This document shows, piece after piece, positions 1 to 59,050 of a stretch of DNA of 64,000 bases. The position numbers and the translations under genes were made by a program. Numbering within the stretch: the first letter of the stretch is position 1; each line of letters opens with the position of its first letter. Location: NCBI GenBank assembly GCA_964016885.1, contig OZ024745.1, forward strand, positions 38,998,001-39,062,000, read 5' to 3'. The notes under the pieces are model-generated. The model made no database searches. It was given only the letters and a program-made list of their open reading frames with translations, and was not told where the DNA came from. This stretch comes from Eledone cirrhosa. Lineage: Eukaryota.

Positions 1-928
1 GAGTTACCATATTTTGTCAGAGCGCAACAGCATACCCCTTAAAATGCAACATATCAAGTTGGATAGTAAAGCATAATGTTATTTTCAATGTAAGCAATGC
101 GAAGTTGTATTAACTGCGACATGCAAGAATAGATACTGGATCTAGTAATCATAAAATAAAACGAAGCAAGCTTAACTATGAAATAATACCCGAATGTATG
201 TGATTTCTTTTATATTTCCATGGTTAAAAAAACTGCTATAGGGATGAAATATAAGGGAAGTCGATAAGATATTGGATTATTATATGCTATACTCAGTGAG
301 TACAAATCTGCTTCAAGCGCCATGGTGTGTTTATATAATATATTCTCCATTGCCTCAATACATTTATTTTTCGAGAATTCATATCAGATTTTCTGAGAAT
401 ACTAACATCACTCTATTGATCATGCTGAATGCATTATTATTGTTACAGCGAATATATGCTTAGAAGAAGCCTAGAACTTAAGCACATAAGTAGCTCAACA
501 TAGAAGAACTATATATATATATATATATATATATATATATATATATATATATATGCAAAAGTTCTATTTAAAATTGTTGGGATACAACAAGTAAATATTT
601 TATAACTGATATAAAGCACTCGACAAGTTTTTGGAGTAGATATACAATATTAATAAATGGAAACTATATTTATAAAACCATATTTATTTCATTATACATA
701 TTTCAGGGATACCAAATTAAAATATGGTATGCCTTCATCAGACAAAATACAATATATAAACAGTTTTATAAATAATTTTGACATACCCTATTAAATGCAA
801 CCATTATTTTTGGAAGCTGTCTGGATAGTGAAATGTTTATATTATTTTATTAGTTATAGTGTTAAGCACAATTAGAAAAAGACGGAGAGAAAGAAAGAAA
901 AAAAGTAAGTAAAGACGAACTGGAAAAA

Positions 929-2700
929 ATGAATACAGAGGCATTTTGTATAATGCATGAATTAGACATTGAGAATAAAACACAACCCTTCATGCCTAGG
1001 AAACCTAAGATCAATATGAAAGATCACAAAAGAAACTTTGAAAATGATTTGCCAGTCAGATTGATTGCACCATCTAAATCTGACCTGGGAAAACTTAGCA
1101 AAAACATTCTAGACAGGGTAATACAACAAATTAAAAACTTACCTAATTTACCTTACTTAAAGTTATGGAAGGGGACTGGTGAGGTTATTGAGTGGTTTAA
1201 AGAAATGAAATATAACTATAATAATAAGTTTATTCAGCTGGATATTGCTAACTACTATTCATATATCACTCCTTATCTACTGAATAAGGCACTAAATTAC
1301 GCATTTAAACATACTCACCTAACTAGCAATGAAATGTACATTATATTATCGGCAAGGAAAACATTGATAGAATTTAATAACCAATTCTGGACTAGGGCAG
1401 ATAGAGATAATAATTTCGACATAACTATGGGATCATCAGACTCAGCTGAGGTAACGGACCTTGTGGGCCTATTTATAATTAATTCGCTACATAGAAAAAT
1501 ACCAGGTGTAACCGGAAGATTATATCGTGATGACATGCTTTTACTTATTGAAAATAATAGCTGTGAACTAAATAGAAAAAGAAAACAAATTATACAATTT
1601 TTTAATTACCTTAATCTAAAAATAGAAATAGAGAATAACCATAGAATAGTCAATTTTCTGGATGTAACACTAAATCTCAACACATGTCTTCATTATCCAT
1701 TTCACAAACTAAATGAGAACTTGAATTATGTCAATTTTAACACTAATCACCCCAGATCTGTTAAAAATACTATAGTGAACTCTGTTCAAGAACGAATTTC
1801 AAGTATTTCATCTAACATAAATGTTTTTGATGAAAAAGCGCAGTATTACAATGAAGCGTTAGGTAGAGCAGGATATAGAGATAAAATTAAATACATCGAT
1901 AATAATAATAAGCAAACTAACCAAAATAATAACAATTTCAATTACGGTAACAACTTTAACAATTATAATAGAAAACATTACAATAATTCCAAAAGCCGAA
2001 AAAGAAATAGAACTAGAAATATATTATGGTTTGCCCCCCCCCCCCCCTTCTCACTAAATATTAAAACCCATATTGCTAAACTATTCTTTAATGCTCTTGA
2101 CAAACGCTTCCCTAGAACACATAAATATTAGTCAAATTGTAATAGACACACTATAAAATTAACTTACTCGTCCAACAAAAATTTAGCACACAATATTAAT
2201 AGAATTAATAATAGGAATTTAAAACCTAACCAAAATACCAATAATAACCCAAACAATATTCAATTAAATAACTGTAACTGTAGAAATAAATCTAACTGTC
2301 CGTTAAATAACAACTGCTTAGCTAAAAATGTAGTGTACAATTGTAATGTTAAAACTAATTTAAATTCTTTCAACTATGTTGGTTCCACCTCGACAGAATT
2401 TAAACTTCGCTTCAATAATCATAAGAATTCTTTCACAGATCCAAACAAAAAATCTTCAACTTCGCTATCTAACCTACTCTGGCACCTTAAACGAGATCAT
2501 ATTAAATATTCGATGAATTGGAATATTATTTCACTGCTACTCCTTTTAATTCCTCTTCAGATAATTGTGATCTTTGTATAGAAGAAATATTCTTTATATT
2601 AAAGTCCAAAAATTCCCTTAATTTAAGGAGCAATGTATTCAGTTGCTGCAGACATAGATTGAACTCAACGTTTAAATATAAATATAAATTTAAAATGTAG
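929..2700 (+). pseudogene. PLE RT-GIY-YIG ORF, 5'-truncated and disrupted
   Basis: Motifs QLDIANYY, FDITMGSSDSAE, LYRDD, VNFLDVTL, CNCRNKSNCPLNNNC, VVY..YVGST..FKLRFNNH, CDLCIEE, SCCRH; in-frame TAG at 2129 and frameshift near 2530. Confidence 0.92.
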
Positions 2701-4160
2701 TATAATTAATTAAGAAATTTAGTTAATATATGAAAACCTGTCGATAAATCATTAGATTCCTTCACCTTTTTCATTTTAAACTTTCTTCCTAAATATAAAC
2801 AAGGATATAATAAATTACTCTAAAATGTATATGCTCCCAATGTATTAAATAAAATATACGTGAGATAAATTTCTATACTAAATATAAGGTTATCCGTAGA
2901 ATCACTGGGTCTTCTAAATCTTTTAAATTATTTTTATTTTTTTATTTGTTTTGACCCTGATAGCTTCTAATAACTTTCATAAGTCTACCCTTTCAATATC
3001 TTGTTTGAGATATAGGTAGGATACATTTCTATACTAAATATATAAAACATATTATTTTAACTTGAGATAATCTATTGTGTTTTAAAGATATTTAATGCTT
3101 TGATATTTCTATATTAATATATTGATATTTGATTATCTCTATACAAATGCCATATGTGTGTATTAACATGCATATAAAAGTGTTATAGGGTCTATTTGTG
3201 TGTCTGTATATATGTCTGTATATATACATGAGCGATGCTGGAGGACTCACGCAGATATTTATTGATACATATGTATGTGTATATATGTGTGTGTGTACAT
3301 GTGATGTATGTTGCAGATATGCATAATATTAAATTCATGAACGGTAATCGTATATATGAGGACATGAATATTAATCTTTTATTTATGTATATATACTGTG
3401 AACTTTTTATAACACAAGGAGTGTATAACAGTGATCAAGTGGAATCATTTGCGCTTTGTGTGTCTATATTATTGGCTTGAGTAGACATAATTTATATTTT
3501 CAGGACGTACATATGTGTGTATATATATATACATATTTGTATCCTGATTTTTATAAATAGGGTACTTTTTGAAAGATTTAACTCAGATTTTGGTATATTG
3601 ATTTCAAGTTTTTAAACTAAACATATGGTCATTATTGAACAATCTTATTTTCTCATATTATATATCTATGTCCCATTCATGAATATTGATATTTATATTT
3701 TTATTATTCATTTCATATAAATTGTTAACTCAACTTAATATGACATGACTTAAAGTTGTCACTATCTCCCCCTCTCTCTATTTAGTATTTTCTCTCTCTT
3801 GAAGTTTTCTATCTGTATGATGATTTATTATCTCTTTGTTGCTTTCCTTTGTTTTTCTTATTTCTTCCTTTTTTTCTTTCTTTTTTATTTCCTCTTATCT
3901 ATTTATCTCTTTCTTTTCTACATACATTTCTCTCTCTCTCCGATATTTCTCCAGGTTTTCTTTTTCTCTCTCTCCTTCTTTCTCTCTCCTTCTCCCTCTC
4001 CGTTTTTTTTTTCTTTCTTTCTCGCCGTCTTTTTCTAATTGTGCTTAACACTATAACTAATAAAATAATATAAACATTTCACTATCCAGACAGCTTCCGA
4101 AAATAATGGTCGCATTTAATAGGGTACGTCAAAATTATTTATAAAACTGTTTATATATTG

Positions 4161-4225
4161 TATTTTGTCTGATGAAGGCATACCATATTTTAATTTGGTA
4201 TCCCTGAAATATGTATAATGAAATA
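4161..4225 (+). ncRNA. Minimal type I hammerhead ribozyme in family A pLTR (antisense copy at ~684-750)
   Basis: CUGAUGA 4169-4175; stem II AGGcAUACCA/UGGUAUcCCU; GAAA 4206-4209; near-palindromic stem III AUAUGUAU; 8-bp stem I UAUUUUGU/AUGAAAUA. Confidence 0.8.
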
Positions 4226-57240: not shown

Positions 57241-57712
57241 ATATATATATATATATATATATGTGTGTTAATCAAATTATGATGGGATTATTAAAGAAAC
57301 AGTGGATCTTTGGAATTGCTTTCCCCATCTCATATATACACGCACCTACACACTCATGCAGCTGCACCCAAACACGCATATGTATATGCGCGTGTGCGTG
57401 CTGGTGCAAGTGTGTGTATGTGCGTGTATGTAGGAAGATGAAGGAATGCAATTCTAAAGGATTCCATATATGTATATATATATATATATAAATATACATA
57501 TATACATATATATATATATATATATATATATATGTGTGTATATATGTGTATATATATATATATATATATATATATATATATTTATATATATATATATATA
57601 TATATATTTATATATATATATATATTTATATATATATATATATATATTTAATATATATATATATATTTATATATATATATATTTATATATATATATATAT
57701 TTATATATATAT

Positions 57713-57812
57713 GTAGATAAATCTACCAAGAGTTTACGTTAAATAATGAACTTTTTTTGTTTAATATAAGGAACTGTTTCATTGTTTTATTCATTATTTG
57801 TTTAATATTTTA
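57713..57812. mobile_element. 100-bp mini family B PLE
   Basis: Tail tip (matches 26572-26597) fused to sequence matching 34815-34891. Confidence 0.88.
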
Positions 57813-58136
57813 TATATATATATATTTATATATATATATATATTTATATATATATATATTTATATATATATATATTTTTATATATATATATATATATTTA
57901 TATATATATATATTTATATATATATATATATATATTTATATATATATATATTTATATATATATATATTTATATATATATATATTTATATATATTTATATA
58001 TATATATATTTATATATATATATATATATATATATATATATATATATATATATATATATATATTTATATATATATATATATTTATATATATTTATATATA
58101 TATATATTTATATATATATATATATATATATATATA

Positions 58137-59050
58137 GTAATAATAATACATTTGAAGACTAAAATCCAAAGAGGGCTCGATAAGGATAAATATGTATCAA
58201 ATATATAGGAACCGTAGAGCAAATATTTATTAAAATAACAGATTAACGTTTAAGCAAAGAATCGCTGCTTTCACCCTTAACGGGATCTTCTGAAACTAAC
58301 AAATGTATCTGTAAACGCAGAAGTGGATATTTCAAAAAACGTTGCAACCGGAGGAAGACAGGAAGACGATACTTTGGTTCGTGGAAAGGTTCGCTGTCAA
58401 AGAACGGGAAAAAACGAATATAATACGTCATTAATAGGAGCGGTGAAAAACAAGTACGCGCAAAGACAGAACCACGTTTATGCTATAAAAGAGGTCGTTG
58501 ACTAATGTTCTCTTAGGTGGTTCATAGAGACGTTCTCTGGCAATGAACGAAAAAAACGAAGATAATTCGTCATATGTGGAGCGTAGAGTACAATAGCACG
58601 CAAAGACAAAATCACGTAAATAGTATAACAGAAGTCGTAAACTAAATTTCTAACTAGGAGACCGAATGAATCTCCGCTACAGAGTTAAGAACAAAGTAAA
58701 TAAATACAATACAGAAGTAATAGAAATAAATAAATACATACACACAAACAAATACGTACATACACAAGCATACGCAAAACACTTACCATAGGTATACAAA
58801 ACCACGCACATATAACGTGGTTCTGTCTTTGCGCGTAATTGTTTTTCACCGCTCCTATTAATGACGTATTATATTCGTTTTTTCCCGTTCTTTGCCAGCG
58901 AACGTTTCCACGAAGCAAAGTATCATCTTCCTGTCTCCCTCCGGTTGCAACGTTTTTGAAATATCCACTTCTGCGTTTACAGATTGACTTTGTTAAGGGT
59001 GAAAGCAGCGATTCTTTGCTTAAACTTTAATCTGTTATTTTAATAAATAT
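58137..59050. mobile_element. Longest family C palindromic PLE derivative (non-coding)
   Basis: Arms ~58222-58477 and ~58814-59050, left tail, internal diverged tandem repeat. Confidence 0.85.

Follow-up and report, generated by a model that had tools for sequence, protein, structure and literature searches.

Inserts in the (TA)n tracts of the Eledone cirrhosa genome, which on motifs found in four of their families we assign to the ends of Hydra-type Penelope-like elements, follow an asymmetric pairing rule. The rule was followed up from a stretch of 64,000 nucleotides (nt) of contig OZ024745.1 (assembly GCA_964016885.1, positions 38,998,001 to 39,062,000; hereafter the window). A two-armed insert consists of an arm pair, i.e. 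two outward-facing 3' ends in (TA)n, and each end is either tailed (L) or short (S). All 17 two-armed inserts recognized by an automated rule in the window combine one L with one S end, and so do 102 of 107 pairs in random stretches outside it, which upholds the stereotyped tailed/short pairing put forward in an earlier description of this DNA (the original prediction). The pairing rule is strong but not absolute. Our favored hypothesis, to which we give a probability of roughly 0.55, is that both nicked strands prime reverse transcription on one RNA at two fixed internal sites, and that the two cDNAs are then joined.

The genome surveyed is an AT-rich animal genome of 3.0 Gb. From nine contigs 140 stretches of 10 kb were chosen blind to end type; ten of these (L181-L190) were tandem segmental copies and were removed, and the 130 kept amount to 1.3 Mb outside the window. 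Families were obtained by clustering the sequence adjacent to TA tracts, and 20 family references were built, the S windows being drawn from these very data and, in seven of the families, made wider. Besides the 102 L/S pairs, the random stretches contained four S/S pairs and one L/L pair (one pair is a duplicate). With 194 L and 178 S ends, an L/S fraction of 0.50 is expected by chance, and the excess is significant at p = 6e-25, so that a count of end types, as suggested in the original prediction, reveals no random pairing. A further 158 ends (90 L, 68 S) were unpaired. Tail-free queries for families C, E, D and B agree with the L/S excess, and all tail-blind sets together, with duplicates removed, comprise 132 L/S, 6 S/S and 1 L/L pairs; these totals exclude 29 A loci retrieved by a tail query, and G and tail-blind A were classified within the random sample only. 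A family-blind scan for inverted repeats between TA tracts returned 118 asymmetric and 14 symmetric cases, four of the latter being inner tandem units of family P. The same scan revealed an extra A-family L/L pair (L195), absent from the family count. A core-only search for family A gave no match.

Both ends are sharp. Among the TA-flanked starts in the 1.3-Mb sample, 372 of 382 fall within an L or S window; the endpoints of short arms are thus not scattered, in agreement with the original prediction that they recur at family-specific points. Starts other than L share one alignment position in 17/19 cases in family E, 25/27 in F and 51/62 in C. We considered two trivial explanations and rejected both. 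Short ends could be chance matches to TA, but family E shares a single base with the target there, and the end sites are defined much more sharply than runs of TA. An assembly artefact is contradicted by arms that differ by CpG decay and by inserts that recur on many contigs. In the young family E about half of the inserts have one arm: 12 such inserts, flanked by TA at either end (8 with L, 4 with S), stand against 10-11 two-armed ones. Since one-armed inserts use either L or S, the pairing pertains to two-armed events, and since they are common, the two-ended route is not obligatory.

The geometry of the arms was examined in 117 tightly joined L/S pairs (of which as many as four may be duplicates). 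Arm overlap exceeds 12 nt in 90/117 (median 82 nt, maximum 390), and the L arm ends before S in 18 and at S in 9. In a set of 170 pairs the S arm reaches farther in 79 and the L arm in 23, with 45 equal and 23 undecided; an excess in this direction would be expected if the reverse transcriptase (RT) that starts at S leads. The inner ends lie no more than 10 nt apart in 36 of 95 pairs, as compared with 23 by permutation (p = 0.0002), and at least 3 shared bases are present at 49% of 55 junctions against 23% in the null. Coinciding inner ends, and the variants shared by the arms (see below), are what one would expect if a single cDNA folded back at a palindrome and primed itself, with the inverted arm stopping at S, a route discussed for other Penelope-like elements in the available text of PMC3846280. 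A copy, however, cannot exceed its template or contain sequence foreign to it, yet the S arm is the farther-reaching one in 79 pairs, and fold-back from S cannot produce a tail. Because the L arm falls short of S in 18/117 pairs, we excluded fold-back as a general route, and we hold it to be the least probable of the explanations considered here. As a separate observation, inner ends cluster by hammerhead stems or short palindromes and not at the predicted cut (35030-35242 and 53205-53276 in the window; positions 125-145 of the D reference).

In its broad outline the favored hypothesis resembles twin or dual priming of L1, in which both ends of the target prime antisense cDNA and the cDNAs are joined, as set out in the portion of PMC2837659 available. 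The differences are that priming here does not involve poly(A), that the second site is fixed and not reached by chance annealing, and that this is a main route. According to the same source L1 twin priming leaves an internal deletion, whereas the arms described here mostly overlap and lack one. The original prediction of a programmed twin-priming route is therefore supported as regards priming on two strands and a fixed, non-random pairing, and fails as an equivalent of the L1 reaction, since 90/117 pairs overlap.

A second element of the original prediction, that one cDNA is primed at the RNA's 3' terminus, is contradicted by what lies beyond L. At the DNA level, families A, C, E, P, Z and V have a tail that does not stop at L but leads on to a leader and open reading frame (ORF), or to the next tandem unit. 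The read-through loci are L133 for E, L147 and L078 for C, and L014/L141 (one locus) for A, with an ATG at +48 nt after L in E, +44 in C and +50 in A; tandem multimers of P, Z and V display the same read-through. A contig of run X1 (kind of run unrecorded), 7 letters different, also spans the junction between tail and leader in E. The order of a unit is hence hammerhead, S, tail, L, leader and ATG/ORF, and, because the tail continues past L into leader and ORF, L and S are likely both internal to the RNA. The scheme in which L is the RNA 3' end and S an internal site, each copied once in the manner of L1 twin priming, did get the pairing right; moreover, the L arm stops at or before S in 27/117 pairs, and transcription of a source copy that ends at L might carry on into (UA)n. 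We nevertheless regard it as very improbable given the read-through in six families, the same motif following both L and S (see below), and the overlap in most pairs. The multimers of non-coding units have periods of ∼430 nt in P (L156:8524-9593), ∼555 nt in Z (L037:781-3740) and ∼616 nt in V (L196:506-3696). Multimers fit a tandem or circular template without proving it, and the long and short ends of P and Z fit those that rolling-circle copying would give.

The two arms of an insert agree in the variants of their subfamily. At non-CpG sites with shared variants, 48 of 876 comparisons were discordant against 319 expected, and 195 were concordant for the minor allele. In family A the arms diverge by 1.4% within and by 7.1% between inserts. 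Later gene conversion or homogenization is unlikely: arm identity does not decrease with the length of the spacer, and among 19 A pairs selected through their tail, 12 have arms that disagree at a CpG site. Spacer-independent identity and arm-specific CpG decay suggest that the match likely dates from insertion. Once the number of sites tested is allowed for, no fixed difference in sequence sets L arms apart from S arms. From the sequences, the match would be compatible with one RNA and with two RNAs of one source alike. Both ends might thus prime on two RNAs of one source locus, akin to the dual priming of L1, with an asymmetric complex or the order of nicking assigning L and S. Such a scheme would accommodate the long overlaps with no need for strand displacement, as well as the lack of a pile-up of L arms at S, and one active source per cell would also yield matching arms. 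On the other hand, it requires an extra rule against L/L and S/S pairs and has to cope with lone arms that use both sites, and in families rich in subfamilies an insert hardly ever combines different haplotypes. We consider two RNAs unlikely, though by no means far-fetched.

Two kinds of signal accompany the end sites. First, at least 3 bases at S are held in common with (TA)n in 12/15 families (0.24 by chance; U, X and R were omitted as ambiguous, and V and Y are without S), E sharing only 1 base, and at L 3-6 nt are held in common in 6/6 families, as judged by eye. Secondly, both halves of a motif, RCUC...GAGY, are found 0-15 nt 3' of S in 11/18 families (0.03 by chance). Its first pair is matched in 11/11, as A-U in seven and as G-C in four, i.e. 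it covaries, and beyond L, families A, C and E show GCUC...GAGC, as does a candidate junction in F. A TAT-like run at S, seen in 12/15 families, is also a possible nicking site, and L might accordingly be the sole priming site, with S made at the DNA level by the endonuclease cutting the TA-rich site of the copied element (suggested in the accessible part of PMC8557442). The requirement of a Penelope endonuclease for the tail in recognition, as cited in the text of PMC11167929, would favor such cutting. Against it speak the S/S pairs and the inserts with a lone S, the 18/117 pairs whose L arm fails to extend as far as S, and the Poseidon element of Anolis carolinensis (PAc), which starts cDNA in vitro at both boundaries of the tail, as described in the same text. 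In sum we find DNA-level origin of S improbable.

Self-cleaving motifs are present upstream of S in part of the families. A descriptor detected type I hammerheads in 6/20, at 45-60 nt from S in A, G, Q, U and M and at 80 nt in H, and none in the remaining 14/20. In family A the descriptor scan found the motif in 65 of 104 arms. The hammerhead-like motif of E fails the strict descriptor, and in Z a hammerhead core is visible by eye. A comparison with Rfam yielded no hammerhead among the 150 best of 241 matches listed, and sub-threshold hairpin and repeat matches only.

Taken as a sequence of events, the favored hypothesis would run as follows. The GIY-YIG domain would nick both strands of the symmetric target, and two RT subunits would each occupy a stem, one of them by S and the other by L, with one RNA offering each site once. 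Each 3' end would then pair with a short UA run and prime antisense cDNA; RT starting from L would displace the first cDNA and so run on beyond S, and the 3' ends of both cDNAs would join through short complementary or palindromic stretches, followed by fill-in. If only one end primed on the RNA, the outcome would be a one-armed insert. The least supported step is that a ribozyme-cut, circularized or tandem RNA would supply the sequence 3' of L. Since copies in the genome stop at L or S, a template that extends beyond L would have to come from a tandem source or a ribozyme-made circle, and circles of the latter kind are shown for retrozymes in the available text of PMC7229834. In a more specific version, which we advance tentatively as a possibility, a dimer binds two RCUC...GAGY stems on one circular or tandem RNA, aligns the nicked (TA)n ends on UA runs in a telomerase-like manner and copies onto both ends at once, a reaction that might be general to Penelope-like elements.

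This hypothesis should be interpreted with some caution, because several results weigh against it. Approximately 5% of pairs are of the same type, e.g. S/S in E at L131 and L/L in D at L031 (the pairs lie at L131:1494-4670, L040:7117-7374, L082:973-1608, L031:2746-3029 and L195:2808-3161). The ratio of S/S to L/L is 6:1 in the family count (p = 0.125) and 6:2 when L195 is included, and the S/S case at L206 is a palindrome, flanks included, that may have arisen by later duplication. Extra or unalignable bases occur at 40/95 junctions. The L arm crosses S without a pile-up (9/117 stop there), an outcome that two separate RNAs would fit equally, and (TA)n masks target duplications, so that the nick geometry is hidden. 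Arms of family C are by overall identity no closer within inserts (0.059) than between them (0.062), while at shared-variant sites they are concordant (8 discordant against 35 expected). The motif after S is absent or incomplete in F, H, K, P, R and Z and tied in G; that after L is not complete in P, Z, V and D. Only one of four motif hairpins folded better than shuffled sequences, the stems are small, and the families are related, which makes the motif counts non-independent. Finally, the starts of PAc are reported, in the text of PMC11167929, to be non-homologous to the cut DNA and without strand preference for either site; here 3-6 nt are common with the target in most families.

The assignment to Hydra-type elements is based on the coding sequences. 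As read from translations, a single ORF with RT followed by a C-terminal GIY-YIG domain is open over 928 amino acids in E (L133), measures 713 amino acids in C (L147) and is broken in A and B. All of A, B, C and E carry SDKT, i.e. DKT in place of DKG, and a CxCX5C linker upstream of the endonuclease, and none has CxxC between the GIY and YIG words, so that the CCHH motif is missing. Next to the E and N residues, CxxC and CxH are present in A and E and partial in B and C. Together with insertion into (TA)n and, in the six families where the descriptor detected them, hammerheads, these characters are those of the Hydra clade. The inserts differ from that clade in three respects: units of E and C are ∼3.3 kb, above its tendency (not a rule) of less than 3 kb, RWR replaces RWK in A, B and C (RWK is retained in E), and each family has two end sites. 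The Neptune clade, an early candidate, was dropped on the description of the Hydra clade. A Pfam search of five ORF pieces gave no match for any of them.

Within the window, the arm coordinates of the original prediction for A, B and C were reproduced to within 1-2 nt. In family A the tailed ends lie at 555 and 35030 and the short ends at ∼4266 and 35243; in B the tailed ends lie at 26572 and 57713 and the short ends at 34891 and ∼57811; the four C copies start at 4988, 10380 (an 11-nt tailed remnant only), 16347 and 58137. Four two-armed inserts in addition to the 17 were read by hand, namely B at 26572-34891, K at 25965-26387, C at 10380-10439 and D at ∼11074-11240. Tails are 47-161 nt long in most families and ∼230 nt in K. 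The coding body had been predicted to be attached to either arm, which is borne out by E (tailed arm, 53277-55063) and by A and B (short arm); the D copy at 59416, listed with a body on the short arm, turned out to be one-armed and without a partner arm.

Three inserts retain coding bodies together with both arms. A1 begins with an inverted tailed arm on the minus strand (555-904; L end at 555, tail ∼555-641), which is 97.8% identical to 4006-4273 across 268 nt and whose L end recurs in 30 loci (tail as query, A1 itself counted). Its body follows on the short arm (905-4266, plus strand) as a 5'-truncated ORF for RT and GIY-YIG that carries a stop and a frameshift, a 3' untranslated region (UTR) and the S end at ∼4266. 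The type I hammerhead motif of the family was located there by descriptor scan (4161-4226, plus strand), with its core at 4169, GAAA at 4206 and a predicted cut after 4217, ∼50 nt before S. Comparison of the A1 arms (637-904 versus 4006-4273) gives five inner differences, all of them CG in the short arm only, and at three of the five sites CG is the minority variant among family members. In B1 an inverted tailed arm (26572-28118, minus strand; tail 26572-26705) is joined to a body on the short arm (28119-34891, plus strand) with an ORF frame at 28129-30327 (732 amino acids, frameshift in the endonuclease), a long 3' UTR and the S end at 34891. The UTR contains a 693-nt tandem duplication with 99% identity, and the tailed arm lacks ∼370 nt found in the short arm (coordinates for these two features: 31251-32684 and 34388-34755). 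In E a short inverted arm of 72 nt (53205-53276, minus strand), 95.9% identical to 54830-54902, precedes a body on the tailed arm (53277-55063, plus strand) that holds the endonuclease half of the ORF, the hammerhead-like motif (54811-54841), the S site (54902), a 161-nt tail and the L end (55063).

The other inserts are short. With L on the left and S on the right the automated rule called C1 (4988-5208), H1 (8927-9259), F1 (14775-15180), C3 (16347-16633), D3 (36444-36624), M (36641-36841), H2 (51266-51414) and N (57004-57238); the same orientation was found in C4 (58137-59046), with ∼260 nt of arm overlap, and in the decayed D1 (11074-11240), read by hand from an inverted match at 11157-11241. 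S lies on the left and L on the right in D4 (56773-56978, automated rule) and in U (24846-25418) and F2 (26405-26550), both from TA-adjacent clustering and the automated rule. A short arm is joined to an 11-nt remnant of the tailed end in C2 (10380-10439), recognized from its sequence and missed by the automated rule, and to ∼27 nt of the tailed end in B2 (57713-57811), whose arms do not overlap. Both arms of A2 (35030-35242) end at hammerhead stem III, and each arm of G (55082-55538) contains a hammerhead of type I (core at 55443 on the plus and at 55281 on the minus strand; fold z -3.3). K (25965-26387), with one copy in the sample, has its (TA)n centrally; the center of inversion is a (TA)n/(CA)n tract, and its ∼230-nt tail is the longest seen (region of 26194-26387). 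For two tailed arms called by the automated rule, D2 (15271-15625, minus strand) and M2 (41043-41242, plus strand), a partner was not found, and the one-armed D5 (59416-60380, minus strand) comprises a short end and an RT fragment.

Some further sequences were noted in the window. A fragment of P is located at 16082-16218. Two inverted repeats, at 5298-5449 and 19502-19685, do not have both ends within (TA)n. GC-rich broken ORFs on the minus strand at 45758-50300 resemble a non-LTR retrotransposon, with endonuclease and RT fragments of what we take to be that kind of family. A separate repeat of ∼190 nt, very common across the sampled stretches and often adjoining (AAT)n, is present at 9839, 10203, 22880, 30579-30764, 43132, 45112, 50838-50989 and 62120; one copy directly follows the B1 ORF.

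The layout itself is mostly known, in that both the tail on one side and the pair of internal start sites have already been published. Complex insertions of endonuclease-bearing Penelope-like elements with an inverted 5'-truncated copy and a one-sided tail of 30-40 bp are described in the accessible parts of PMC3846280 (Pen2a_Av) and PMC8557442, where self-priming or resolution by the endonuclease is favored. They share with our inserts the two outward 3' ends, one of them tailed, the partial tandems and the palindromes at some of the junctions. The inserts described here differ in having tails of 47-161 nt (one of ∼230), a counted L/S fraction of ∼95%, a body on either arm and lone arms with either end. 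PAc, according to the text of PMC11167929, nicks and extends both strands in vitro from two internal starts that bound the tail, with a hammerhead upstream and a predicted dimer, a two-site layout like the present one. Its starts are inside the ORF, whereas here they precede it, with the ATG 44-50 nt after L, and that text mentions neither a link between the two sites in the same insertion nor a repeated stem motif. Non-LTR retrozymes offer a parallel to the non-coding tandem units of P, Z and V, of which P and Z obey the two-end rule, although our units measure 430-620 nt as against the 170-400 nt reported for retrozymes in the portions available of PMC7229834 and bioRxiv 10.64898/2026.07.22.740005. 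Circular RNA, putative for the present units, is demonstrated for retrozymes (PMC7229834, as available). We found no published count of the pairing, twin priming for Penelope-like elements or the stem in the literature covered, which did not extend to older subscription papers or the supplementary figures on PAc.

In conclusion, the shape of these insertions is known, and the quantified rule and the motif make their mechanism testable. If the more specific version outlined above is true, a programmed two-ended reaction would account in a single scheme for tails and inverted arms as well as for partial tandems and multimers. Penelope-like RTs are the sister group of telomerase, and internal priming at sites set by a stem, on a short match of the primer, would therefore link the two mechanistically. 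How integration of Penelope-like elements is finished, and how the inverted ends and the tail arise, is stated as an open question in the texts of PMC8557442 and PMC11167929. The 95% pairing, the arms from the same template and the stem repeated by each start site make that question testable in an existing in vitro system.

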